Origin: a virus
Taxonomy: Duplodnaviria; Heunggongvirae; Uroviricota; Caudoviricetes
Virus record (IMG/VR): IMGVR_UViG_2718218133_000007
Reading direction: 5' to 3' (one strand)
DNA length: 46,024 bases
Shown here: piece after piece, positions 1-37,027 of the stretch
Layout of the letters: the number at the start of each line of letters is the position of its first letter
Position numbering within the stretch: position 1 is the stretch's first letter
Notes under the pieces: generated by a model
What the model was told of the DNA's origin: nothing
The model's input: only the letters and a program-made list of their open reading frames with translations
Databases searched by the model: none
Position numbers and translations under genes: made by a program

Positions 1-750
1 TCAGTCAATTGTTTTGTTTATTCCATCTGTGACGCCGATTATTTTCTCAAAATAATGAGATGGCGTGACACCATAATAATCTTTAAATGCACATATGAAA
101 TATGAAGTACTGTTATAGCCACATTTCTGGGCTACGACATTGATAGAATAAGAGTTTGAAGTTATGAGTTTTTTTGCATACCTCATCCTAGTATCTCTCA
201 ATATTTCAGTAAATGACGTTCCTTCATCCCTTAATCTTTTTTTTATTAAACTTTCACTCGTATAAATCAATTCCGCAATATCTTTTAAATGCCATTGCCG
301 CTCAATATTAAAACTGATTATTCCAGTAATTTTACAGGTAAATGTATTTATATTTGTTAGTATAAATGAATTTACACTTTCGCGTTTTTTGAACATGGCA
401 AGTAAGGATATACATAGTCTTTCTTTTAACCAAAGGGAGTGTGAGTCTGCTATTTTAATCCCTTCAAACAGAGAAAAAACAAGCGATAATGGAGGTTCCT
501 CTTCAGCAATATAGCCATTCTTATCAAGAGTAAATTTGCCAGGCAGCTCATTATTCACGTCGATAAAAAAGGATAAACATGTTTTCTTATCTATATCAAC
601 AATTCTTAGTTTAGAGGGGCATACTGGTAACTCCCTTCTAATTTTGTCGCTTACAATAAACAATGAATTTTTTTTGAACGAGATAACTCTCCTGTTTATA
701 ATTAAATCAAATGATTGACAGATGAAAACTACGGAGCAAACATAATCCAT
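1..750 (-). CDS. appY: AraC-family transcriptional regulator, AppY-like (complete)
   Basis: 249-aa ORF with C-terminal AraC-type HTH (…[24 protein letters not shown]); matches my recollection of E. coli AppY (249 aa, DLP12 right end); long AT-rich region upstream. Confidence 0.75.
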
Positions 751-1425
751 CTTGCACCTATCATAAAATTAAAACAAGTTGATAGCAGTCAAATAACAAC
801 CAATTAAATACACAATCATAATCAGGATGATGTGCATTTATATTTTTATACACAAAATTATAGTTTGCAAATTTTAATAAATTTCATTTAAGATTAAATT
901 ATTATATGTATATTGTTTTTTATTCTAACGTATTTCAAAGTTACATTTTTCAACGCTTACTATACTTTTTATTAACATAAACTCACTACAACGCACCTGA
1001 AACCTCTTGCTATATATATGTCAACCGTTTGAATTTAAAATAAAAAGAGTATCATTTTTACTTGCATTTCTTATCAAGTCACATTCAACAACAGTAAAAA
1101 AACATTATTAGAACCATTCAATTAACAAAAAACCAACATCCAGCTTGCTTAATTTTTCTTTATTAAACGACATTGAAAATCAATTGATAAAATACATCTA
1201 AACAACCTTTTGGGGCGCAAAAGCATAACATCAAACAAACAAATAACACACCGAAAAAACTCACAATTAATAACCTATGATATACATACTGTTTATTATG
1301 GTTGAATAAGCCACTCGATATCTGGTGCTACGGAAGTGTCCACACGGTTTAGCAGCACCCGATACTTTTTCCAGGCTTCCAGCAACGAGTTTTCTTCCTC
1401 CGTTGCATATACAGCTCACCTTTTT
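751..1425. promoter_or_regulatory. AT-rich, ORF-poor upstream region of the appY-like gene (likely promoter/leader)
   Basis: ~675 bp of very AT-rich sequence with no credible ORF, directly upstream of the appY start at 750. Confidence 0.4.
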
Positions 1426-1719
1426 TCACCCACGATTAACCAACAGCCAGACCAGCAGACACGCCACCACCGGCACAGCAAAATCCATCAGGCTTGCCAC
1501 ATCCCACGCGCGCGGATCAAAACCGCCCCACCACGGCATATTCATTCGCTTGCCATGCCCGAACATTTCGATCCAGCGATATTCTGCCTAGGTGTGTTCA
1601 CGCGCAATGAAGAACGTACAACCGGCTATCGCCCCGTAAGCCCAGTTCCCGGTAAAAAGACCAATCAGTAGCTGCGCAGCCACAGCACAAAGCGCATGAA
1701 GGAAAGGTGTTATATCCAT
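1426..1719 (-). pseudogene. small hydrophobic protein ORF interrupted by an in-frame TAG (about 43 codons, TAG, about 53 codons)
   Basis: Hand translation of the minus strand from ATG ~1719: MDITPFLHALCAVAAQLLIGLFTGNWAYGAIAGCTFFIAREHT-TAG-AEYRWIEMFGHGKRMNMPWWGGFDPRAWDVASLMDFAVPVVACLLVWLLVNRG; neither half reaches the 60-aa ORF-track cutoff. Confidence 0.3.
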
Positions 1720-1732
1720 TTTCATCCTACCC

Positions 1733-1755
1733 AATAAAACGGGGCGCTCGGCCCC
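1733..1755 (-). terminator. putative intrinsic terminator downstream of the distal tail-fibre gene
   Basis: GC stem ggggc/gcccc (~1741-1755) followed on the minus strand by a T-rich tract (gttttatt). Confidence 0.4.
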
Positions 1756-1761
1756 TTAATA

Positions 1762-2802
1762 TTATTTAGACGCAAGCGCCGCCTCAATTGCAGATAATCT
1801 TTGTCTTAATTCTGCGTTTTCTTCTTCCAGTGCTGTTATCCTGTCGTCTGACTCTCTGGCTACCTGAACAAGCAAACCCGTTACGCCTGAGTAATCAACG
1901 GTATAGTATCTTTCTCCCTCTTCTCCATCAGACCCATTGTCCCCGCTCTTGTACTTTATTGTGCTACCAACTGATTCAGGGATTGCATTAAGTGCCTCTT
2001 GCGCAATAACGCCAGCATAAGGCATACCATTAGACTTGAGACGGTAAGTATACCCATTCATTAATCTGATGCGCTCAGTGGCATTATCAATAACCTGAAT
2101 GTTTTCTTTAAGATCTCTGTCCGACACCTGGTCGAATGATGTAGCCTTGCATGACCCGTTTATCTCAAGCTGATAGGTTTTATCTGGGTTCCTTTGTGCA
2201 TAAAACAAAAAAAGCCCGCCATCATCCCTAATTTCATAAACAACTGGACGACTGGAATTTCCCCATAATAACGTCGACACACCAGAATACGCCGTACCTT
2301 GCGTGTTTAGTGTCATGGTCGACCCGTGATTAGCATATTTGATCTGCAATGAGTCTGTATTATCAAACTTAATAAGCGCGTTACTTCCCCGCACACCATA
2401 CGACATGAGACAGTTCCCCATCTTAAGGTAACCATCACTGCCTGGAAAAATTAAAGTTCCTCCGTAAAGATCACTAAAGTCCCAAAAGATACCTTTTGTC
2501 CCGTTATGTGTGACGATCCTCGTCATTGTATCTTTAGTACCATCAATATTTTTTCTGGTATATATGTCACTATAAGCGTTTTCCGTTTCACCAGTCTTAT
2601 TTGACAAATGCAGCTTACCGCTGAATATAGTTCCAGTTGTTGGCAATGTTTTTTGATCATAGATTACATTGCAATAACCATTCCATGTTGTTTTATTGTC
2701 TACATAAGATTTTGTTGCGTAGTTTCCTTGATCGGTTTTTAATTTACTAACATCCGATTTTAGCGTTTTGATGTCATCAGGAATTACTGTTTTTGTAACC
2801 AT
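1762..2802 (-). CDS. tail fibre / receptor-binding protein with C-terminal intramolecular chaperone (peptidase S74-like) domain
   Basis: 346-aa ORF; C-terminal region (…SDRDLKENIQVIDNATERIRLMNGYTYRL…, coiled-coil tail ALEEENAELRQRL) resembles the auto-cleaving chaperone domain of phage fibres/tailspikes; last gene of the tail operon; AT-rich relative to lambda-like core. Confidence 0.55.
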   Translation of the reverse strand: MVTKTVIPDDIKTLKSDVSKLKTDQGNYATKSYVDNKTTWNGYCNVIYDQKTLPTTGTIFSGKLHLSNKTGETENAYSDIYTRKNIDGTKDTMTRIVTHNGTKGIFWDFSDLYGGTLIFPGSDGYLKMGNCLMSYGVRGSNALIKFDNTDSLQIKYANHGSTMTLNTQGTAYSGVSTLLWGNSSRPVVYEIRDDGGLFLFYAQRNPDKTYQLEINGSCKATSFDQVSDRDLKENIQVIDNATERIRLMNGYTYRLKSNGMPYAGVIAQEALNAIPESVGSTIKYKSGDNGSDGEEGERYYTVDYSGVTGLLVQVARESDDRITALEEENAELRQRLSAIEAALASK

Positions 2803-2814
2803 TGTCTTACTCCA

Positions 2815-3084
2815 TTAAGCCCATGTCCTTACATGCTGATCTGTCGTAATGAAAGGCATTAAAGAAGATATGTTTTTACTGCTATCAACAATCCTCATGT
2901 TTACGAAAAAACCACCGCGATCAATGCCCGTACATCTTTCGTTTTCTGGCTCCTCGTAATCAATAATGCAGCCAATAACATCAACAAGAACCCCATTTTC
3001 TTCTTCAAGACTGAACAGGCCACTGTCATATACAATTGCGTTAAACTGTTCTCTGTTATCGAATCGTAATGTTATATCCCGCAT
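2815..3084 (-). CDS. hypothetical small protein between the two fibre genes (89 aa)
   Basis: ORF start overlaps the stf stop (coupling-type arrangement); no family recognised. Confidence 0.35.
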   Translation of the reverse strand: MRDITLRFDNREQFNAIVYDSGLFSLEEENGVLVDVIGCIIDYEEPENERCTGIDRGGFFVNMRIVDSSKNISSLMPFITTDQHVRTWA

Positions 3085-5447
3085 TATACGTATTCCTTAA
3101 GCTGCGTATCTGACAATGCTCTGTTCCAGAAACGGAGGTTTTTTATATGACCATTAAGGTGTCGTAATCCTGTCGTCGTTTGCCCCCCGATTCGAATCAC
3201 GGCTGCTTCACGAATATATTTCCATACTGTTTTGGTTTCAGTGCTTATATGCTTATTTGCAAATGAGCATGTCATGCCGTCAGCCTTAACCCTGAATCCC
3301 ATAACGAGATCTCTTACTCCGCATGACTCATATACACGCCGGTTAGCCCCGCCTATATCGCAATACGAATAACCATCCTGACTGATAGTTCCAGAAGAAC
3401 CAAACCCCATAATAAATGGGCCTCCGGACTGGTGATTTTCTGAATCAATGACACGCGGTGCAGCATTATGAGAAATAAACCAGTTTTTATGGACTTCCAC
3501 CATGAACGTAAAAGGCATGGTATACATATTTTTCATCAGCGGAAATTTACATAAATCTGATGCACGAGTCGCTGGCTCTGTTGTCGTTATGATAAAGGAA
3601 GTTGCACAAGCACCATACTCGAATTGCGGGGTGGTTACTTCTATCCAGTCACCTGTTGCAAAAGCCCCCACTGCTCTGTCGGCTGCAATTTGCAGCTGCG
3701 TACCAACCATTCCCCATTCTGGCAGACATTTCAGTGTTGCCTGAAAATATATCCATCCACTACCAGGGTCGATTTCAAAGTTTGCTGTTAATAGCTGGGC
3801 ATTACCACCCGTAATTTGTAGTTCATGAGTCTGTAATGACAAATAGGCGTCACAAAGGAAAGTGTATCCTTCCGAGTTATACCGTTCAAAACGGATACGT
3901 GCGCGAACATTGAGATCACTTCTTACCCTGAACGACGCGGTAACATACGGACCTTTACTGTACTGATCATCGCCAGTCACATCTATGCCTTTATTACCAG
4001 CAACTGTGCATATATTTCTCCCTGTTGTCGTTCCTGCTATGTCGCTTCCTACTGTGAAACGTCCATATTTAAACTCAAATTCATCTGTTGATGATGTTAC
4101 AGATATACCACCGCTTTTATTCCACGCATCAGGATTAAAACTATTTACGAACATGTTTGTTCGCTGATTCTCTATCAGCAAACCATATTTTTCAAAACGA
4201 GGAACGTTATTCCCTGCCACGGTAATATGCCCGGACTTATCAATATACGTTGCTGATGAAGCGCGGCTAAATTGGCATATGCCATTAACAGGCATTGTTA
4301 TTTCATCACTGCCGATGGTTATTGTTTTATAGCCCGGGGCATACCCTGTTATCGCTTCCAGAGAATCATTCAAGGGTAGCCAGATATCAGGAAGCGGAGG
4401 GACTGAAGCAGGATCAGCGGCATCTTCTGCAATCCGGGCTGCATTCTCTGCTCTTGTTGCGGCTGACGTTGCTTCTATCTCGCTGGCTGCTGCTTTTGTT
4501 TCACTCGTCTTTGCGTTAGTTTCACTGGTTTTTGCAGCTTTTTGGCTATTAGCTGCCGCACTTGCAGAACCAGCTGCGGCACTCTCGCTTTGGGCCGCTG
4601 CATCCTGACTGTTTTTTGCCGCAGTTTCGCTGGCTTTGGCATTCGTTTCGCTGGTCTTCGCTGCCGTCTGGCTGGACTTTGCGTTAGTTTCACTCGTCTT
4701 CGCAGCTTTCTGGCTGTTAGCCGCAGCAGTTGCTGATCCAGCTGCTGAAGTCGCAGAACCGGCTGCTGCGCTCTCGCTTTCAGCTGCTGCAGCCTGGCTA
4801 TTTTTCGCCGCAGTTTCACTGGCTTTGGCATTCGTTTCGCTGGTTTTCGCTGCCGTCTGGCTGGACTTTGCGTTGGTTTCGCTCGTCTTTGCGGCTGTCT
4901 CGCTGTTTTTCGCGTTGGTTTCTGATTTTTTGGCTGCTGTCGCGGAGTTTGCCGATGCAGTCTGCGAGGACGCTGCCGCCTGTGCGCTGTTAGCTGCATT
5001 CGTTTCTGAGGTTTTCGCCGCGTTCTTCGATGATGCCGCTGCAGTTTCGGATTTCTTTGCCACCGCTGCGCTCTGAGAGGCGGCTTCGGCGTTGCGTGCC
5101 GCTTCTTCCACCATTGCCTCAAAACGACGCAATGCCTCCGGCATGACATCATCTTCCGTCATGGCACCGAGAAAATCATTCAGCGTACCTGGTCTGGAAC
5201 CTTCATAGACGGTAATGGTTCCGGCATGTGAAGGCGGAAAACCTTCAACCAGCAGGGTGACGCTGTACTGGCCATACTCAACATCCATGCTGTAACGCCC
5301 GGCTTCATCCGGATTTTCAGAGGCCACCGTGTTCACCAGTACCGTGGTGCTGTTACGCTTTGCCTTCAGTTGAATAGTGCAGTTCTGTATTGGTTTTCCC
5401 GCACCATCTTTCAGCACACCTGAGATTTTTACTGCTGCCATATCCAC
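3084..5447 (-). CDS. stf: side tail fibre protein Stf (lambda Stf-like N-terminus, Ala/Ser/Thr/Lys-rich repeat region, LamG/concanavalin-like C-terminus)
   Basis: 787-aa ORF; N-terminus MAAVKISGVLKDGAGKPIQNCTIQLKA… matches recalled lambda Stf; internal AAKTSETNAKSSQTAAK-type repeats; C-terminal …GHIKNLRFWNRALSDTQLKEYV typical of LamG-like domains; follows lom. Confidence 0.85.
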   Translation of the reverse strand: MDMAAVKISGVLKDGAGKPIQNCTIQLKAKRNSTTVLVNTVASENPDEAGRYSMDVEYGQYSVTLLVEGFPPSHAGTITVYEGSRPGTLNDFLGAMTEDDVMPEALRRFEAMVEEAARNAEAASQSAAVAKKSETAAASSKNAAKTSETNAANSAQAAASSQTASANSATAAKKSETNAKNSETAAKTSETNAKSSQTAAKTSETNAKASETAAKNSQAAAAESESAAAGSATSAAGSATAAANSQKAAKTSETNAKSSQTAAKTSETNAKASETAAKNSQDAAAQSESAAAGSASAAANSQKAAKTSETNAKTSETKAAASEIEATSAATRAENAARIAEDAADPASVPPLPDIWLPLNDSLEAITGYAPGYKTITIGSDEITMPVNGICQFSRASSATYIDKSGHITVAGNNVPRFEKYGLLIENQRTNMFVNSFNPDAWNKSGGISVTSSTDEFEFKYGRFTVGSDIAGTTTGRNICTVAGNKGIDVTGDDQYSKGPYVTASFRVRSDLNVRARIRFERYNSEGYTFLCDAYLSLQTHELQITGGNAQLLTANFEIDPGSGWIYFQATLKCLPEWGMVGTQLQIAADRAVGAFATGDWIEVTTPQFEYGACATSFIITTTEPATRASDLCKFPLMKNMYTMPFTFMVEVHKNWFISHNAAPRVIDSENHQSGGPFIMGFGSSGTISQDGYSYCDIGGANRRVYESCGVRDLVMGFRVKADGMTCSFANKHISTETKTVWKYIREAAVIRIGGQTTTGLRHLNGHIKNLRFWNRALSDTQLKEYV
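4440..5080. repeat. degenerate tandem DNA repeats (period about 189 bp, 63 codons) inside stf
   Basis: Near-identical blocks beginning ~4621 and ~4810 (…cagtttcgctggctttggcattcgtttcgctgg…), with further degenerate copies ~4440-4560; creates spurious alternative-frame ORFs. Confidence 0.6.
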
Positions 5448-5505
5448 TCCACAAAAAAGCCCGCCTGAACCGGCGGGCTGTCATAACACTGTGTTACCTG
5501 GCTAA

Positions 5506-6105
5506 TCAGAATTTATAACCGACACCCACGATGAAACCGTCAGTGCGCCAGTCGCCACTGCCGGAGCCTTCATAAGCAATATCAATGGCCACGGATTCGG
5601 TCGGGTTAAACTGCACGCCAGCTCCCCACGCCAGAGACGTGTTGCTGTGGCGATCGTCATCACTTCCGGTCAGCACATCGTGCGTTTTCCCCTTGTTGTC
5701 AGTTACGCGGAGATAATCCCCGGAGAACGTCGAAACACGGCTGTAAGCCACACCTGCCATCGCATAAGCACTGAACCATTCATTCACGCGTACAGATGGC
5801 CCCGCCATCATGCTGAACCAGCGGTTACGCACTGAATCTTCATGCCAGCGGGTATCGCTGTAATGCGTTTTTTGCTCATCTTTGGCATTGGCATAACTGA
5901 ATGACGTCACCAGCCCCAGCGTGTCCGTAAATTCATAACGGTATTTCACGTTAATGCCCTTCAGGTCATCACTGCCTGGCATATCAGTATAGGTCTGAAG
6001 ATACCCGGCGCTTAGTGTGGACTGATGCTCTGCTGCGCTCGCTGGCGTACCAGCGGCAACCAGCCAGACTACTGCGGACAGAATAACAGCACATAATTTA
6101 CGCAT
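5506..6105 (-). CDS. lom: Lom-like outer-membrane protein (Ail/Lom family)
   Basis: 199-aa ORF with signal peptide and C-terminal …GFIVGVGYKF beta-barrel ending; position between J and stf as in lambda. Confidence 0.85.
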   Translation of the reverse strand: MRKLCAVILSAVVWLVAAGTPASAAEHQSTLSAGYLQTYTDMPGSDDLKGINVKYRYEFTDTLGLVTSFSYANAKDEQKTHYSDTRWHEDSVRNRWFSMMAGPSVRVNEWFSAYAMAGVAYSRVSTFSGDYLRVTDNKGKTHDVLTGSDDDRHSNTSLAWGAGVQFNPTESVAIDIAYEGSGSGDWRTDGFIVGVGYKF

Positions 6106-6172: not shown

Positions 6173-9100
6173 TCAGCTGATACTGATGCCTGCGGTGGCT
6201 TTCTTCATCACCACAACCAGCAAATCGCTGATACTTGCTGTGGGATACCAGCCATTTACCAGCCATGCCGATACAGAAAATTCCAGTGTCATGACACCAC
6301 TGCCTGCAGGCATATCAATAACACCCGTATATATCAGCGTATTATCCAGAGCCGTTCGGTTATAAATTTCAGCACCGTTTTTTCGTACTATCAGACGGCA
6401 TGAGGAGTAGATATCAGTATGATCTTGCTCATGTTTAGCGCCACTGAATGCCACCGCCGGGATAACAATTTGCCGGTCAAACGGCTGATCGTCATAAACC
6501 CTGACGGTAATGGTTCCTGATGGCCACCGCTCCGGTGCACGGGAGTCCCGGGGGAAAGCTTTGCCCACCGTTTTAACGAGATCGCCTTCAATCTGGTTCG
6601 CGGACAGTTTTCCCAGAACCCGGCAGTTCTCGTTAATCGTGACGTTGTTGAGCGTCCCGGAGTTCGCATTCACGTTACCGCTGATATCGGCATTTTTCGC
6701 CGTCAGCCGCCCGTCCGGTGTCAGGGAAAATGCCGGAGGATTACCGCCGCTGGTAATGGTGGGAGCCGTCAGATATTTCAGGAACACTTCGTTCATGAAT
6801 ATCTGATCGCCCTGACCAACAAACATCGGCTTTGTGTTGCCATTCGCAGGATTAACCATCGCAATCCTGTCCGCCGCCAGCAGCACCTGACTCTGCATGC
6901 CGTCAGGGGTGTTCTCAATACCGGCACCAATACCCGCGATATAAAGGCGTCCGTCCTGCATCTGCTGCAGCTTCACAGCCCACATGCTGTTCAGGTTATT
7001 ATTTGTATCAACCTGAACCTTCTGTATCTGCTGGATCGCCGCACTCTGGTCTTCCAGTTTCTTATTGACAGTCTGCGTGATTTCATTGCTGACATCCGTA
7101 ATGGACGTCCTGATTTCAGCCAGGTCAGGCGCAAGCTGACCGTTATCAATCTGCGTCCACAGCTCCTGAGCCAGATGTGTTTTCCCTATCTCTCCTTTGA
7201 AAAAATCCAGGTAACCTTCCGCATCATCGCTCGCCCGACCGATAGCCTCCACGAATGCCGATTTGCCAACAGTATTCACACTGCGGATATAAAAGTAATA
7301 ATCATGGCCCGGTTTGATATTGATACTGGCGGCTATCCAGTACAGTGCCGTACCAAGATAACGCGCGCTGGTTTCAACCTGCCTGATATCCGCAATCCGT
7401 TTTTCCGAGAACCAGAACTCAAACTGTACCGTCGGGTCATAAACCGCAAGATGCGGCGTGGCGGTTATCTGAAAATAGCCCGGTGTCAGCTCAATCCGAG
7501 ACGGCGCTGCCGGTGCGGCAATCCGGAACGATACCGATGCCGGATCGCCCTGCTGTCCCCACGCATTTACCGCCCGGACTGTCAGCCTGTAGTTCCCCAA
7601 CGCCAGTTGTGTGAAGCGGTATGTGGTTTCCGTCGTCCGGGCCGTGCTGACCAGCCGCTCACTGCCGTCGTCCGCTGTTACGGTCAGACGGAGCAGGAAG
7701 CTCACGCCCTTCACCACCTTCGGTGTGTCCCAGCGCGCCAGCACCTGATATTCCCCGCTGTCTGCGGTGACTTCGGCAGTCAGGTGCTGCACCGCTGGCG
7801 GCGTGACACCATTCACCGTGCCGCTCTGGTCGCCGTCAAAGTGCGCCCCGTTATCCACGATGGCCTCTTTTTCCGGCACATGCTGCACGGCGGTGATGGC
7901 ATACGTGCCGTCGTCGTTCTCACGGATACTCACACAGCGGAACAGGCGCTGGCGCAGCGTCGGCAGCTTCAGCCCCCACACACTGTATTCTGCAACGCCG
8001 TCAGGAACCCGGTTCACTTTCACCTTAAGTCCGTCGGTGACGGACTGAACCTCCACGCTGACCGGATTACCACTTCCGTCAACCAGGCTTATCAGCGTGG
8101 TACCGGAGGATGGCAGCGTGATTTCACGGTCGAGCGTCAGCGTCCGGGTCTGGCTGTTCACCGCCAGCACGCGACCACCGGTGCTGATACCGACATAGTC
8201 ATCATCGCAGATTTCAATGACATCGCCCGGTACATGGCGAAGCCCTTCAGCACCCACGCTGAAATCCACGGTCTGCGTCTCCAGCAGTTCCGTTTTAATC
8301 AGCCACAGCCCGGCGCGGTGTGCCTGCCCCCGGCTGGTACAGCCAAAGGCATCCATCTTCGTGACATTACGACCGTAACGGGCAATGGCCTGCGTATCTT
8401 CAACAAGCTCTGTCGCCGTCTCCCAGCCGTTGTCCGGGTCAATCCAGTTCACCTCAACGGCATTATGGCGGTCCTTCAGGGCGCTGAAGCTGTAGCGGAA
8501 CGGCGCGCCATCATCCGGCATCACCACATTACTGCGGTTATAGGTCCACACCTTATCCGACGGTCGGTCCTGCACGAACGTCAGCGTCTGCCCGTTCCAT
8601 ACCGGCATACAGCGCATCGCCGAGCAGAAATCACTGAGCACATCCCACGCCTTGCGCTGTGTGGTCAGGTACGCATTACAGGTGATGCGCGGCTCCGTGC
8701 CGCCAAAGCCGTCCGGCACTGACTGGTCGCAGTACTGGCCGATGACATACAGCGCCCATTTGTCCACATCCGCCGCACCAAGACGTTTCCCCATGCCGTA
8801 GCGTGGATGGGTCAGCATATCCCACAGACACCAGGCCATGTTATTGCTGTATGCTGGCTTAAACGTTCCGTCCCAGATACCGCTGTATTGCCGAGTCTGC
8901 GGGTTATAGTTCGACGGCACCTGCAGAATACGCCCGCGCAGATGATAATTACGGCTCACCTGCTGGCTGCCGAACTGCTCCGAATCCACCTGTACGCCGA
9001 CCAGTGCCGTGTTCGGGTAGCACTGTTTCACATCGATGATTTCGGTGTATGACGACCAGAGCGTTTTGTTCTGCAGCTGGTCTGTGGTGCTGTCCGGCGT

Positions 9101-9652
9101 CATCCTGCGCATCCGGATATTGAACGGGCGCGGCGGCAGGTTATCCACCACCACCGAGGCCAGATACTGCGAGGTGGTTTTGCCCTTAATGGTGATGTCT
9201 TTTTCCGTCACCCAGCCACCATTACGCTGTATCTGAACCAGCAGGCGGACTTCCGACGGATTCCGGTCCCCCTTTGAGGTGGTTTCCACCAGTGCCTGTA
9301 CACCGAAGGTAAAGCGCAGACGGTCGATGTTTGCCGACGTGATGGTCCGGGTGATCGGCGTGTCATATTTCACTTCCGTACCCAGCACCGTCTCGGAGCC
9401 GGAGGATTCAAATCCCTCCGGCGGTGACTGCTCCTGCTCACCGGTCCGGAACACCACCGTGACGCCGGAGATATTGGTATTCCCCTCACTGTCCAGCACC
9501 GGCGTACTGTTCAGCAGCACGCTTTTTAATCCGTCCACCGGACCTTCAACCGGCCCTTCGCTGATGGCATCGATCACACTCAGCAGCTGCGTGGACTTCA
9601 GGTTGTCCTTCGCTTCGCGCGGGGTATGCCCCTTACTGCTGCCTTTACCCAT
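6173..9652 (-). CDS. J: host specificity / central tail fibre protein J
   Basis: 1159-aa ORF; N-terminus and fibronectin-III region match recalled lambda J; extreme C-terminus diverges. Confidence 0.95.
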
Positions 9653-24967: not shown

Positions 24968-25144
24968 TGTTCATTCCACGGACAAAAACAGAGAAAGGAA
25001 ACGACAGAGGCCAAAAAGCTCGCTTTCAGCACCTGTCGTTTCCTTTCTTTTCAGAGGGTATTTTAAATAAAAACATTAAGTTATGACGAAGAAGAACGGA
25101 AACGCCTTAAACCGGAAATTTTTCATAAATAGCGAAAACCCGCG

Positions 25145-25156
25145 AGGTCGCCGCCC
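25145..25156 (-). other. cos cohesive-end site (cosN core, lambda-type 12-nt GGGCGGCGACCT)
   Basis: + strand aggtcgccgccc is the reverse complement of the lambda cohesive end; located ~180 bp upstream of Nu1; coordinates approximate to a few bp. Confidence 0.7.
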
Positions 25157-25355
25157 CGTAACCTGTCGGATCGCCGGAAAGGACCCGCAAAATGATAATA
25201 ATTATCATCTGCATGTCACAACGTGCATCTACGCCATCAAACCACGTCAAATAATCAATTATGACGCAGGTATCATATTAATTGATCTGCATCAACTTAA
25301 CGTAAAAACAACTTCAGACAATACAAATCAGCGACACTAAATACGGGACAACCTC

Positions 25356-25589
25356 ATGTCAACGAAGAACAGAACCCGCAGAACAACAATCCGCAACATC
25401 CGCTTTCCTAACCAAATGATTGAACAAATTAACATCGCTCTTGATCAAAAAGGGTCCGGGAATTTCTCAGCCTGGGTCATTGAAGCCTGCCGCCGGAGAC
25501 TGTGCTCAGAAAAAAGAGTTTCTCCTGAAGCAAACAAAGAAAAGAGTGACATTACTGAATTGCTCAGAAAACAGATCAGACCAGATTGA
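25356..25589 (+). CDS. small DNA-binding-like protein, YlcI/DUF3950-like (tentative)
   Basis: 77-aa ORF; orientation and position relative to cos and the lysis genes match ylcI in K-12 DLP12; family assignment from recollection only. Confidence 0.45.
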   Translation: MSTKNRTRRTTIRNIRFPNQMIEQINIALDQKGSGNFSAWVIEACRRRLCSEKRVSPEANKEKSDITELLRKQIRPD

Positions 25590-25645
25590 AGCAATTTAGA
25601 TAATCGTGCAGACTACGCCCCTCATATCACATGGAAGGTACCACA

Positions 25646-26056
25646 ATGGCTCAGGTTGCCATTTTTAAACAAATATTCGATAAAGTGCGAAATAATTTAA
25701 ACTATCACTGGTTTTATTCTGAACTAAAACGTCACAATGTCTCACATTACATTTACTATTTAGCTACAGAGAATATTCATCTTGTTCTTGAAAACGATAA
25801 TACGGTTTTAATAAAAGGACAGGGTAAGGTTGTAAATGTAAGATTTTCAAAAAATAAATGCCTTATAGAAGCCACCTTAAAAGGATTCAAATCAGGAGAG
25901 TTATCATTTTACGAATACAGGAAAAATCTTGCTACAGCAGGGGTTTTCAGATGGATTACAAATATCCACGAAAACAAAAGGTATTACTATACCTTTGATA
26001 ATTCATTACTCTTTACTGAGAACATTCAGAACACTACACAAATATTTCCGCACTAA
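25646..26056 (+). CDS. YbcV-like (DUF1398-type) protein (tentative)
   Basis: 136 aa from the second Met ([14 protein letters not shown]…); position and orientation match ybcV of DLP12; ORF track begins at 25631. Confidence 0.45.
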
Positions 26057-28688: not shown

Positions 28689-29429
28689 TTACATCATGTC
28701 TTTTTCTAAAAAAAATCTTGATGAATATTGATGGGGAGGAACACCAAAATACCTTCTGAAAACACTTACAAAATATGACGTGTTTTCATAACTGCATATC
28801 TCAGCAACTTTTCCAACAGAATATAAATTGTAGCTTAATAACCTTTCCGCCATCACCATTCGCTCTTCAAGAATTAACTTACTAAATGATAAGCCTTCGT
28901 GCTTTAATTTTCTTTTTAACAGACTTTCACTCAGATACAGTCTTGAAGATATATCACAAAGTCTCCATGCTGCAGATATATCCGTGTGAATAATAGCCTT
29001 AACTTTACTTCCTAAACTATTAAGACATCCAAATAAAAAACTTTGCACTATTTTCTCTGAAGATAAGATAGCAAGACATGCAAGTGATATTTGATTTCTA
29101 ACAAAATCCACAGTTCTGCCATCACAATTCAAGCATGCAATCAAGTTCTTTAACAATGAAAAATCTTCACATTCCACCATCAAGTATGCCGGATAAAACC
29201 TTCTTACAGAAAAAGGTGAGAGTGTGTTGCTTTTAAAGAAATCATTAACTGTTTTTTCTTCAACATCTACGATCATTACATGATCTATATTTGATGAAAA
29301 AAAATCTTTTAAATTGTAATCAATGAGAACAGCACTTCCTTTTTTAAACAAAATATCTTCTTTACCAATTCGGACATCAAACGAGTTCAACACCAAAATG
29401 ATAGAACATATGTATAGCATATTATCCAC
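28689..29429 (-). CDS. AraC-family transcriptional regulator (AppY/GadX-like paralogue), cargo gene
   Basis: 246-aa ORF; C-terminal AraC HTH (…YENTSYFVSVFRRYFGVPPHQY); N-terminal domain shows AppY-like pattern (ILFKKGSAVLID vs [13 protein letters not shown]); AT-rich own upstream region; hairpin+T-tract downstream. Confidence 0.8.
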   Translation of the reverse strand: MDNMLYICSIILVLNSFDVRIGKEDILFKKGSAVLIDYNLKDFFSSNIDHVMIVDVEEKTVNDFFKSNTLSPFSVRRFYPAYLMVECEDFSLLKNLIACLNCDGRTVDFVRNQISLACLAILSSEKIVQSFLFGCLNSLGSKVKAIIHTDISAAWRLCDISSRLYLSESLLKRKLKHEGLSFSKLILEERMVMAERLLSYNLYSVGKVAEICSYENTSYFVSVFRRYFGVPPHQYSSRFFLEKDMM

Positions 29430-29771
29430 CTGATATCATTGGGGTTACACCAGGTAAGTATAGGTGGAAAATCAATATTCGCCAGTTCAACAATAAGGAA
29501 AATTTCATTGCATCACAAGTATAAAATTATGTATTTAACTCACAAAGACAAATTATTAAACCAATCTGTTATATTATATATAGCTGCGTGGAATCATAAT
29601 ATTATATATTTTGACTGGCATGTTTACTAACTTTAAGTTGCATCTCAATTGTTTCTTCAGCGTAAACAGAGTTTTTATACAAACTGACACTCTGGGTATC
29701 ATAGTGTAGTTTTTACGATTGTAAATATCCTGCATGCAGGAACTCATCCTTTTGGATGATATCGCATACAA

Positions 29772-30731
29772 TTAATTTACCATCAGTCTTAGAGCCAGTT
29801 CGTCCGGATAGGGATCGAAGTAATTCTGTGTAAGCAAGTAATCATTAGGATACTCACCCAGATAATGCTTCAGCAGAGTCAACGGCGCAAGAAGAGGTAA
29901 TGTGCCAGAACGATAGTTAAGTATAACCTCGCTCAACTCTTTACGCTGGCGTGTACTTAAGTAGTTACTAAAATACCCCTGTATATGCATCAGCACATTC
30001 GTGTGATTTTTACGTGATGCAGGTTTTCTGAGAATCGCCATCAGCTTATCACGATACACCTCAAAGTATGATTCAAGGTCCGCCCACTCGTGTATTGCAG
30101 CCACAAATGGTCCCATATCTTTATAGCCTGCCTGACTATGCGCCAACAACTGAAGCTTATAACGACTATGAAAAGCTAATAACTCTCTTCTTGATAATTT
30201 CTCCTTGTAAAGGTGATTGAGCTCATGCAAAGCAAAAACTCTTTCAACAAAATTCTCACGAAGCACTGGATCATGTAATCGCCCATCCTCTTCAACCGGT
30301 AGCCAGGAAAACTTTTCCATCAAAGTGCTCGTAAATAGTCCCACTCCATCTTTACGACCTCGATTACCATTTTCATCATAGACACGCACGCGCTCCATGC
30401 CACAGCTGGGAGATTTAGCACAAACCACAAACCCCGATACATCCTTTAATTTGTCCATATAAGAACGACTAAACTCTGTCATTCTCTCTGTCACATCCTC
30501 ATTCTGGTCGTGGCTGAAACACATCCGTATATTTCCTTGCGTCGAGCGCACAAGACGTAGAGCAGGACGCGGAACTGGCAGCCCTATAGCCATTTCCGGA
30601 CATACTGGTCTGAATGTTACCCATTCCACTAATTTGTCCATTAAAAAGTCAGCTCTTTTGTGACCACCATCAAAACGAACAGCAGAACCGGCCAAACAAC
30701 CGCTGATTCCAATCACAGGTTTTTTTATCAT
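29772..30731 (-). CDS. YbgA-like protein (DUF523 N-terminal domain + DUF1722 C-terminal domain)
   Basis: 319-aa ORF; conserved YbgA-family blocks recalled from E. coli YbgA: IGISGCLAG…VRFDGGHK, FRPVCPEMAIGLPVPRP, KSPSCGMERV, LPVEEDGRL…LRENF, HSRYKLQLLAH, LPLLAPLTLLKHY. Confidence 0.75.
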   Translation of the reverse strand: MIKKPVIGISGCLAGSAVRFDGGHKRADFLMDKLVEWVTFRPVCPEMAIGLPVPRPALRLVRSTQGNIRMCFSHDQNEDVTERMTEFSRSYMDKLKDVSGFVVCAKSPSCGMERVRVYDENGNRGRKDGVGLFTSTLMEKFSWLPVEEDGRLHDPVLRENFVERVFALHELNHLYKEKLSRRELLAFHSRYKLQLLAHSQAGYKDMGPFVAAIHEWADLESYFEVYRDKLMAILRKPASRKNHTNVLMHIQGYFSNYLSTRQRKELSEVILNYRSGTLPLLAPLTLLKHYLGEYPNDYLLTQNYFDPYPDELALRLMVN

Positions 30732-34911: not shown

Positions 34912-36438
34912 TCAAAAATAAACCTCACCATCAACCATATATTTGAGAGTACTTATCGCCTGCTGGGCGGATATTGTTTTCATTAAAGGATAGTGTTTAA
35001 AAACAATGCCATTCATAAAATAGATATCACAGGTTTTATTATCTGTATTGATTATGATTTTTTCGAATGTTTTATAGGCAAGTGTACGACATAGCTCTCG
35101 CCCATTTTTACTGGTTAAGTCAATAGCATGAAAATCACCAAGTGAACTCACCGCTTTACTCTTCAAAGTTTTTAATGATACAGAAGCCCTTCGTAATTCC
35201 TTATCTAATACTCTGATTTTTTCTGCTATAGCGGTAACTTCAGGCGCAACAGATAATGCAGCAATTAAATTATTAATTTTCATCTGGAGCTCAATAATTT
35301 TCAACTCTAAAGTTTCATTAGCATCTTTCTTGTTTTCAACTGGTTGGATTTTACTACAATTAAAAAGCAACTCATTAATGATATTATAATCAACCAAATC
35401 TCTCTTTATTGATGGCCTGTCACATCGATGCAGTCTTCTCATCGGACAAACATAATAGCCATGCAAACTTCCAGATACCGCATGAACAATCATGGTATTA
35501 CCACAAGCCTCGCACTTCATAACTGTTCGAAGTAGATTTATCAACATAGGATTTTTGCTACTATTGCTAATACCAAAAGGTGCCAACCGAATTTCCTGTA
35601 CAGCGTAAAACAAATCATCTGATATGACTCTGGGATAATAGCCAGCGATTTCACTTATTCCTTTACCTCTTGCACGATATGAAGGTACGCATATACCTAT
35701 CAGAGCTTTATTCGCTAATAATTTTTCAATTACAGAAGGTCCCCATGCACTTTCTTTTCCTGAGAAATTCTTTACAGCATGATCATTTAAATACTTGGCT
35801 ATTGCATTCAATGAGCGCCTTTCCATCCTGAGTTTAAAAATTAGCTCAATAGTTTTCACCCTGTCGGGGTCTGGAACAAAAGCCGTTCTTTTGTCATCTA
35901 AGGAGAGCCATCTCGGACAAGACGCCGTCATAATCGTACCTGATTCCAGTGCATCCTGCCGTTTTTTCTTCCATGATAATTTAACCCGACTTGACTTTAT
36001 CTCGCTTTCTTCATTTGCCCTTTGTGCTATAAGTATGGCTTTTATTAATGAATATGGCTCATTCAAAGAGTCAATATTATAGACTGTATTGTCGCAAAGA
36101 GTTATAACATCAATACCGTGATTCAAAATCAATTTCAGACGTTCAATCGCTTCACCGACTTTTTCTCTTGAAAGTCTGTCCAGACTTTCAACTAACAATG
36201 TAGTTCCTGGCAATATATAACCATGCTCTATAGCATCTAAAAATTCCGAAAAAGCTCCTGATTGTGCATGCTTTCCTTTGAATGCACTTAATCCTAAATC
36301 TTCATATGTTATGGTATCAAGATAATAATCACTATTTACCTTTAACCATTCAGCAATAAGTCTTCTCTGTCGGTTTAATGAGTCGCCAGACATCTGACCT
36401 GGTGATGAAAATCGCATATATGCTATGGCTTTTTTCAT
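34912..36438 (-). CDS. ybcK: large serine recombinase (resolvase/invertase-type N-terminal domain, recombinase domain, zinc ribbon, coiled coil), YbcK-like
   Basis: 508-aa ORF; N-terminal …AIAYMRFSSPGQ… with candidate catalytic Ser; Cys cluster CEACG…C…C; AT-rich; adjacent to emrE as in DLP12. Confidence 0.75.
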   Translation of the reverse strand: MKKAIAYMRFSSPGQMSGDSLNRQRRLIAEWLKVNSDYYLDTITYEDLGLSAFKGKHAQSGAFSEFLDAIEHGYILPGTTLLVESLDRLSREKVGEAIERLKLILNHGIDVITLCDNTVYNIDSLNEPYSLIKAILIAQRANEESEIKSSRVKLSWKKKRQDALESGTIMTASCPRWLSLDDKRTAFVPDPDRVKTIELIFKLRMERRSLNAIAKYLNDHAVKNFSGKESAWGPSVIEKLLANKALIGICVPSYRARGKGISEIAGYYPRVISDDLFYAVQEIRLAPFGISNSSKNPMLINLLRTVMKCEACGNTMIVHAVSGSLHGYYVCPMRRLHRCDRPSIKRDLVDYNIINELLFNCSKIQPVENKKDANETLELKIIELQMKINNLIAALSVAPEVTAIAEKIRVLDKELRRASVSLKTLKSKAVSSLGDFHAIDLTSKNGRELCRTLAYKTFEKIIINTDNKTCDIYFMNGIVFKHYPLMKTISAQQAISTLKYMVDGEVYF

Positions 36439-36694
36439 GGTGACACCTGCTAACGTATGCTTTTATAAACCTTAGTGGTGGGATATAATTTTTGTTTAAT
36501 TTTTATTTAAAAAGACAATTAAGGTCACATTATCTTGAATATACAACAATAATCGTATTGCAATTTTCTTACGCCATAATCTTGAAAGCACAAAAGAATA
36601 CATAAAAAAATAAAGACATTAACAAAAAGCATAAAACGAGGCTCATATAAATATAAGAGCCTCCATATTTTAGTCGTTTAGAAACAAATTATTT

Positions 36695-37027
36695 TTAATG
36701 TGGTGTGCTTCGTGACAATAAATTAATAACCAACACACCGGCACAAATCAACATCATGCCTATAATGGCTGGCAGGTCCAGCCGTTGGCCGAAAAGTCCC
36801 CATGACAGTAAGCTAATCAGGACAATACCGACTCCTGACCAGATAGCATAAGCAATCCCTGTAGGAATATAAGCCAGCGTCTGAGCTAATAACCAGAATG
36901 ATGCACAATAACAAATAATTGTACCAACAGATGGCCATAACCGTGTAAAACCTTCTGAAAACTTCATTAAGGTTGTACCAATGACCTCTGCAAGTATTGC
37001 ACCACCAAGATAAATATAAGGGTTCAT
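36695..37027 (-). CDS. emrE: small multidrug resistance efflux transporter EmrE
   Basis: 110 aa from MNPYIYLGGAILAEVIGTTLMKFSEGF… matches recalled EmrE; four TM segments; ORF track extends to 37081. Confidence 0.9.
   Translation of the reverse strand: MNPYIYLGGAILAEVIGTTLMKFSEGFTRLWPSVGTIICYCASFWLLAQTLAYIPTGIAYAIWSGVGIVLISLLSWGLFGQRLDLPAIIGMMLICAGVLVINLLSRSTPH

Follow-up and report, generated by a model that had tools for sequence, protein, structure and literature searches.

Which O-antigens or surface types are open to a phage depends on its side or lateral tail fibres. The subject here is a tail-fibre module of three genes at positions 1762-5447, on the minus strand, of a 46,024-nucleotide stretch of viral DNA (IMG/VR record IMGVR_UViG_2718218133_000007; hereafter the window, meaning that whole stretch), which is a lambda-like Escherichia coli prophage adjoining appY (1-750, minus strand) and ompT. 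Lateral fibres may comprise one, two or more proteins, as the BASEL paper notes (PMC8594841). In the Tequintavirus IrisVonRoten (Bas32), AlphaFold-Multimer models seat a distal 'T-shaped' receptor-binding protein, Gp24, which carries an intramolecular chaperone, on a proximal protein, Gp22, with a C-terminal 'galectin-like domain' (Humolli et al. 2025, PMC11990801). In phage AKFV33, ORF137, a homologue of the window's proximal fibre protein, was detected in virions by mass spectrometry, and the fibres were proposed to consist of ORF137 and ORF135 (Niu et al. 2012, PMC3326045). The module of the window is a lambdoid instance of this already known bipartite proximal/distal lateral fibre; a literature search, within the limits of the collection searched, returned no paper on the lambdoid version, on the family of ~90-residue proteins encoded between the two fibre genes, or on the N-terminal motif of the distal protein, and the Eligo preprint on lambda-STF engineering does not bear on the subject.

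The three genes probably build one bipartite side tail fibre, for which a probability of roughly 0.65 seems appropriate. In this fibre a proximal protein, Stf (p1), with a C-terminal module of 445 residues (p1C), would carry an exchangeable distal protein of 346 residues (p3), and a protein of 89 residues (p2) is encoded between them. The original prediction had placed a repeat-rich Stf with a lectin-like tip, a small coupled open reading frame (ORF) and a separate fibre with a chaperone domain in this interval; every part was found there, on the minus strand, but the 346-residue protein is probably not a separate fibre at all, rather the distal exchangeable part of the same one, its N-terminal motif being conserved across cassettes. 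The module comprises the following features.

3084..5447, minus strand: stf, proximal side tail fibre protein p1; 787 residues from a GTG at 5447, 785 from the likely ATG at 5441; phrog_1419 over its full length
5046..5435, minus strand: lambda-type N-terminal virion-attachment domain of Stf, residues 5-134 (Pfam PF08400 phage_tail_N, E=3.1e-66)
4422..5093, minus strand: Ser/Ala/Thr-rich heptad-repeat shaft of Stf, residues 119-342, ~32 heptads, guanine plus cytosine (GC) fraction 0.56 (repeat and composition analysis)
4564..4907, minus strand: 189-bp (63-residue, nine-heptad) higher-order tandem duplication in the shaft (TRF score 562; 1.8 copies, 88% identity)
3087..4421, minus strand: p1C, C-terminal 445-residue all-beta module of Stf, GC 0.44 (NCBIfam, phmmer, structure prediction, fold search)
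2815..3084, minus strand: p2, 89-residue acidic protein, isoelectric point 4.4, phrog_1361 (no known function), proposed assembly factor or connector of the proximal fibre
1762..2802, minus strand: p3, 346-residue distal fibre or receptor-binding protein, phrog_4563, with its own ATG and GGAG 9 nt upstream
2755..2802, minus strand: N-terminal 16-residue motif of p3, MVTKTVIPDDIKTLKS, proposed docking peptide, conserved in every cassette whatever the p3 body
1765..2124, minus strand: C-terminal intramolecular chaperone of p3, residues 227-346 (Pfam S74 core 227-278; S227/K232 dyad motif SDRDLK)

Together, p1C, the ~90-residue protein and the distal fibre are a newly recognised portable cassette. 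A fibre gene bearing p1C, then the ~90-residue gene, then a second fibre gene follow one another in that order in five phage backgrounds.

Lambdoid: prophages and the induced phages PhiR11_1, PhiR47_1 and PhiR55_1
Queuovirinae: JenP1, VogelGryff, SA126VB and phiG7
T5-like: IrisVonRoten, AKFV33, L6jm, KookSpook, phA11, EC104 and WP85
P1-like: a phage-plasmid whose tail-fibre locus, next to a gene for a resolvase-type invertase, has p1C joined to the tail-fibre repeat region
HK97-like: a prophage

In every locus inspected the small gene is preceded by a protein ending in a p1C module of ~440 residues (35-52% identity to that of the window), and in all but two it is followed by a fibre gene; p3 was not seen apart from p1C and p2 in the loci examined. 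The composition known from IrisVonRoten, namely a lectin-module fibre, a ~90-residue gene and a motif-bearing fibre, is thus present in the window, and the gene order is the same in 14 cassettes. The p3 bodies are unrelated between types and range from 227 to 586 residues, with more than one kind of S74-type fibre and a Gp34_trimer type among them, and all of them start M-[VAT]-[TS]-x-T-x-IP-x-DI-x-x-LK; the N-termini are 50-100% identical over 16 residues, the bodies ~21-35% between types. Across the 14 cassettes the divergence of p1C tracks that of p2 (Spearman 0.71) and not that of the p3 body (0.14). Likewise, the virulent Nonagvirus JenP1 carries the trio in the same order, with a 703-residue fibre (p1C ~50% identical to the window's), a 92-residue protein (~30%) and a 351-residue protein 93% identical to p3. 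Since p3 is so much closer here than p1C or p2, it evidently moves independently of them, with the junction at its conserved N-terminus. Stf and p2 hardly differ over 29 near-identical prophage loci (97-100% conservation); p3 occurs there in at least five alleles, one of 227 residues, plus disrupted and deleted forms. The 346-residue alleles are collinear and vary in two mosaic patches, residues 36-105, where identity falls to as little as 31%, and residues 166-226, where it is ~61-64%. Such variation suggests a specificity determinant, of which this pattern would be expected, and the distribution as a whole suggests that specificity sits in the small p3 gene, which is freely swapped downstream of 16 conserved N-terminal residues, with no such change in the proximal fibre or in p2.

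The setting of the cassette varies among backgrounds. In the HK97-like prophage (L046 2887-6369; also L047) its genes do not come after those of the tail tip but stand between head-completion genes and the gene for the tail tube, and it might there form a neck or head fibre, given the homology of p1C to the head spike of a gene transfer agent. In the P1-like locus L045 (2101-8851), p1C, a ~92-residue gene and a Gp34_trimer-type p3 stand beside the invertase gene, together with alternative fibre and Caudo_TAP genes in inverted orientation; in a second P1-like locus, L044, the upstream part has the opposite orientation, as if caught mid-inversion.

The distal protein p3 bears the chaperone-like C-terminus that had been predicted from its resemblance to self-cleaving fibre domains, and the Pfam match is direct: Peptidase_S74 (PF13884) covers residues 227-278 at E=2.3e-12, with 47.4 bits against a cutoff of 22. 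The S-x4-K dyad is present as S227-D-R-D-L-K232, aligned with SDRRIK of S16 gp37 (chain 6F45). Autocleavage is predicted at V226|S227 and would leave a mature protein of 226 residues (25 kDa). A Pfam search of p3 gave neither phage_tail_N nor any other known anchor domain, and a PDB sequence search with its head domain returned nothing meaningful. Six cassettes, drawn from the lambdoid, T5-like, Queuovirinae and HK97-like backgrounds, have an S74 domain in cis on p3; the P1-like case has one or more downstream Caudo_TAP genes instead of S74 in p3. In PhiR47_1, p3 (L003 2050-3090) is broken in the S74 domain into a 294-residue protein and a separate 37-residue ORF and is a recombinant of two 346-residue alleles; either the phage can do without the distal protein on ECOR13 or the record holds a sequencing error.

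The proximal protein is a lambda-type Stf at its N-terminus, as originally proposed: phage_tail_N scores 221.9 bits there against a cutoff of 26.6. Its true start is probably the ATG at 5441, which has GGAG 5 nt upstream and is the start annotated in RefSeq and in PhiR11_1. RefSeq (PGAP), on identical sequence (L001 4585-6942; window 3084-5447), splits stf into a 'pseudogene' N-terminal fragment and a 659-residue 'phage head spike fiber domain-containing protein'; with the ORF uninterrupted, this looks like an annotation artefact and not a real disruption. In the shaft the heptad at the protein level is S-E/Q-T-x-A-x-x. The ~189-bp tandem repeats of the original prediction were recovered by TRF as a period of that length, but in just 1.8 copies, the unit being nested in 21/42-bp sub-repeats. 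Variation in repeat copy number was considered as the cause of the Stf length classes (760-801 residues) and rejected: on alignment these reflect mostly differences in start-codon calls, and a single relative has one extra heptad, after residue 288. No S74 domain was matched in Stf by Pfam.

Beyond the shaft, p1C consists of tandem beta-sandwiches of the concanavalin/galectin/LamG-like kind, including the RcGTA head-spike-fibre domain. Pfam returned neither Laminin_G nor any other lectin domain on Stf at E<0.1, so the fold was established by structure prediction instead. The AlphaFold model, built on 37 homologues taken from a search that yielded 2,073 relatives, is all-beta (pLDDT 90.3, pTM 0.88) and of concanavalin-like beta-sandwich fold; NCBIfam NF048003 ('phage head spike fiber') matches residues 424-629 at 47.9 bits against a curated cutoff of 36, and phmmer aligns Stf with Rcc01080 (6TB9) at E=1.5e-3. 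The LamG/concanavalin-like tip that had been proposed is therefore upheld by structure prediction, fold search and the NCBIfam domain, if not by the Pfam LamG model. The full-length matches listed are proteins of 440-1,480 residues, in which the p1C module comes last. Glycan binding by this lectin module is putative.

The small protein p2 is translationally coupled to stf, as had been noticed: the stop codon of stf and the start codon of p2 share letters in TAATG. The protein is predicted, with database homologues, to adopt a small alpha/beta fold, for which the fold match was not significant, and a PDB sequence search with p2 returned nothing meaningful. The p2 query alone reached 4 fragments, and a profile made from phage-derived homologues was needed to reach the family; tblastn and the profile search together gave ~117 homologues, all annotated as hypothetical, every named source being a phage or prophage of E. 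coli or Salmonella. Apart from a C-terminal R-x-W-A, which never varies, few positions of the family are invariant.

How these parts would work together can be sketched. The Stf N-terminal domain would fix the fibre to the tail tip, the heptad shaft would give it reach, and the tandem lectin-fold globule would form its end. Made in step with Stf by translational coupling, p2 would then fold or assemble the C-module, or stay as a small connector in the joint. p3 would trimerise with its own S74 chaperone, which would then be released by its own cleavage at V226|S227, like that of other S74 proteins, and the 16-residue N-terminal peptide of p3 would plug into the distal end of Stf. The tails differ among the backgrounds, which leaves p1C and p2 as the sole partners that every p3 has in common; for this reason the N-terminal peptide is read as a docking plug, by which p3 would attach physically to p1. 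Each p3 has an assembly aid of its own, and Stf, with neither S74 nor Tfa, is left with p2 alone; p2 is therefore most likely dedicated to the Stf C-module, helping it to fold or assemble in place of the Tfa that is lacking.

An altogether different arrangement would make Stf a complete, lectin-tipped receptor-binding fibre with p2 as its chaperone, and p3 an independent second fibre attached elsewhere on the tail. Several observations lean that way or otherwise weigh against a single bipartite fibre. The lambdoid loci L048 and L049 carry p1 and p2 without p3, so that the proximal fibre may work alone with the lectin module as its receptor-binding domain; p1C folds like domains that bind glycans and shares homology with the RcGTA head-spike fibre; and in the IrisVonRoten model the galectin-like domain protrudes from the fibre, as a possible additional receptor-binding domain, which Humolli et al. 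suggest it may be, and not as the socket (PMC11990801). PhiR47_1 still forms plaques with a p3 truncated in its chaperone domain, and p3 can thus be dispensable on some hosts. Further, the correlation between p1C and p2 may reflect tight linkage, not interaction. An independent p3 is nonetheless improbable: it has no phage_tail_N or other known anchor with which to reach the tail, in the loci examined it occurs nowhere apart from p1C and p2, and its 16-residue N-terminus is kept in lambda-like, T5-like, Queuovirinae, P1-like (contractile-tailed) and HK97-like phages despite their differing attachment sites. Far less credible still is that the p3 ORF has no function and is what recombination left of the 3' end of a longer fibre gene. 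PHROG profiles do place p3 at the C-terminal ends of fibre proteins of 1200-1570 residues, and decayed copies exist, one disrupted by an insertion sequence, one deleted and one truncated; but p3 has an ATG and GGAG of its own, its conserved N-terminal motif does not occur inside long fibres, its alleles align collinearly and vary in local patches, and it is intact in the plaque-forming PhiR11_1 and intact and 93% identical in the virulent JenP1.

Within the bipartite fibre, the role of p2 admits a second reading, in which it is not a chaperone; it would instead be a structural connector kept in the virion, bridging the Stf C-module and the N-terminal peptide of p3. The position of its gene, always between both fibre genes and coupled to p1, suits a connector, as do an invariant R-x-W-A among few other invariant positions, which is typical of an interface protein, and an identity that correlates with p1C (0.71) and with the p3 N-terminus (0.49). 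Retention of p2 where p3 is absent (L048/L049) is awkward for a bridge, however, the fold match is not significant, and no virion proteome has reported p2, although this last is weak evidence, as the AKFV33 analysis covered four gel bands only. A connector role is on balance unlikely, if a good deal less so than an independent p3.

How the lambdoid module arose can be read from its composition and from what surrounds it. GC is 0.40 in p3, 0.39 in p2 and 0.44 in p1C, against 0.56 in the shaft, 0.51 in the N-terminal domain, 0.56 in J, 0.57 in the core and 0.54 in the downstream gene. The module had been called AT-rich relative to the core, and this is so for 1762-4421 (GC 0.39-0.44) but not for the stf N-terminal domain and shaft (0.51-0.56). 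No cognate Tfa lies immediately downstream, as it does with lambda-type Stf: the three products of 1762-5447 gave no Caudo_TAP, DUF4376 or Tfa match, and tblastn for Tfa over the whole window, made with one query (DUF4376-type, from L031), found none. The predicted lack of a recognisable Tfa in the interval thus stands, and the tfa stump listed below lies outside it. In two relatives, a truncated older stf (347 residues, phage_tail_N positions 34-131) and an intact 197-residue Tfa (DUF4376) lie downstream of the cassette (L031 6973-8617; L033 6261-7905). From the GC step at the boundary of shaft and p1C, the 93% identity of JenP1 p3, the tfa stump and these two loci, it appears that 1762-4421 was acquired by recombination in an older stf; the unit of p1C, p2 and p3 would have recombined into that gene and displaced its original tip and tfa. 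Horizontal replacement of the receptor-binding module, proposed originally on composition, accordingly gains from the GC step, the spread over five backgrounds, the JenP1 p3 and the leftovers of a stf-tfa pair. Terminator-like hairpins and the GC step mark the edges of the cassette. The order on the minus strand is J (6173-9652), lom (5506-6105), stf, the p2 gene, the p3 gene and a terminator-like hairpin, then a small pseudogene whose product has hydrophobic ends, the tfa stump, low-GC DNA and appY. The flanking features are these.

5458..5479, minus strand: terminator-like hairpin between lom and stf, an 8 bp stem then a T-run; next come a GGAG Shine-Dalgarno sequence and the ATG at 5441 with which stf probably starts
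1741..1755, minus strand: GC-rich hairpin GGGGCCGAGCGCCCC with a T-run after it, at a distance of 6 nt from the p3 stop codon; transcription of the fibre genes probably ends here
1426..1719, minus strand: pseudogene of a 95-102-residue protein with a hydrophobic stretch at either terminus (MDITPFLHALCAV...), phrog_1443, function unknown, with an in-frame TAG where relatives have CAG
1296..1406, minus strand: 3' stump of a lambda-type tail fibre assembly gene, ~37 codons, relic of the displaced stf-tfa pair

The product of the small gene at 1426-1719 had no Pfam match. In lambdoid relatives the phrog_1443 gene always follows the terminator-like hairpin of the cassette, even where p3 is missing (L048/L049), and it may be a moron, for instance one for superinfection exclusion or for modification of the surface. 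The stretch 751-1295, from appY to the prophage end, is non-coding and very AT-rich (25% GC). Other low-GC islands of the prophage (0.33-0.38), at 25000-26000, 29000-30000 and 35000-37000, are likely other horizontally acquired accessory genes. A tRNA gene search across the whole window found none.

The module in the window is itself ordinary: dozens of sequenced E. coli genomes carry an identical prophage, and relatives at 94-98% have already been isolated. A 4.2-kb query around the module finds prophages of 100% identity in many complete E. coli genomes, NZ_CP033850 and ECONIH1 among them; at least 80% of the query is present in 74 of 5,426 genomes, and it is 94-98% identical to the plaque-forming PhiR11_1, PhiR47_1 and PhiR55_1 (ECOR hosts on record). 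The cassette is widespread in E. coli and Salmonella. More speculatively, and with the odds somewhat against it, p1C with the ~90-residue protein may be a universal 'socket' and the 16-residue p3 N-terminus a universal 'plug', a portable docking standard by which unrelated receptor-binding proteins could pass among the five lineages, between phages with long non-contractile tails and the contractile-tailed P1-like ones, in which case the ~90-residue family (phrog_1361, 117 homologues) could be an unrecognised class of connector or chaperone. Were this true, it would give a retargeting rule for lambda-, T5- and P1-type vectors, namely to exchange p3 and keep its first 16 codons, and it would assign a function to a family of ~90-residue 'hypothetical' proteins.

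The module can be set beside several systems already described. The RcGTA head spike fibre Rcc01080 (PDB 6TB9; NF048003) is homologous at the sequence level to Stf residues ~393-642, but it belongs to a gene transfer agent, as a fibre at the capsid vertex, whereas in Stf the domain ends a tail fibre and a second beta-sandwich comes after it. With the S74 chaperones of endosialidase, T5 pb1 and S16 gp37, p3 shares the above-threshold Pfam match, the C-terminal site, the S-D-R-x-x-K motif and the coiled-coil tail, although mature p3 would have just 226 residues. Lambda's own ancestral pair, Stf and Tfa of Ur-lambda, has a homologous phage_tail_N domain and the same genomic position after J and lom; its tip and Tfa chaperone are replaced in the window, where the ~37-codon stump is left. 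The branched LtfA/LtfB lateral fibres of the T5-like phage DT57C (Golomidova 2016, PMC4728585; Ayala 2023, PMC10713586) resemble the module in that a tail-anchored protein holds a second, specificity-bearing fibre. Both of those proteins end in S74, however, and no ~90-residue gene has been described with them, whereas Stf has no S74 and ends in a lectin fold, and the junctions are not homologous; this proximal Stf without S74 rules DT57C out as the family of the window's cassette, and the resemblance is functional only.

Closer are the fibre genes of AKFV33 (ORF137/ORF136/ORF135, 'ltpA/ltpB') and of JenP1, which have the same three-gene order as the window but belong to virulent phages with other anchors. 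The AKFV33 cassette is, further, a divergent subtype (p1C 36%, p2 32%, p3 starting MTTYTNIP), and its small ORF is unmentioned in the report of that phage (PMC3326045). Finally, the Gp22-Gp23-Gp24 set of IrisVonRoten differs from the window in its anchor, which is T5 pb1-like and not the lambda phage_tail_N, and in its distal protein, a 574-residue 'T-shaped' fibre with two receptor-binding domains that is unrelated to the 346-residue p3; its published account is based on AlphaFold-Multimer and does not discuss the small protein, Gp23 (PMC11990801). What the two share is the architecture itself, with 52% identity in p1C, 36% in the ~92-residue gene product, 75% over the 16 residues of the p3 N-terminus, and a C-terminal S74 domain on the distal receptor-binding protein.

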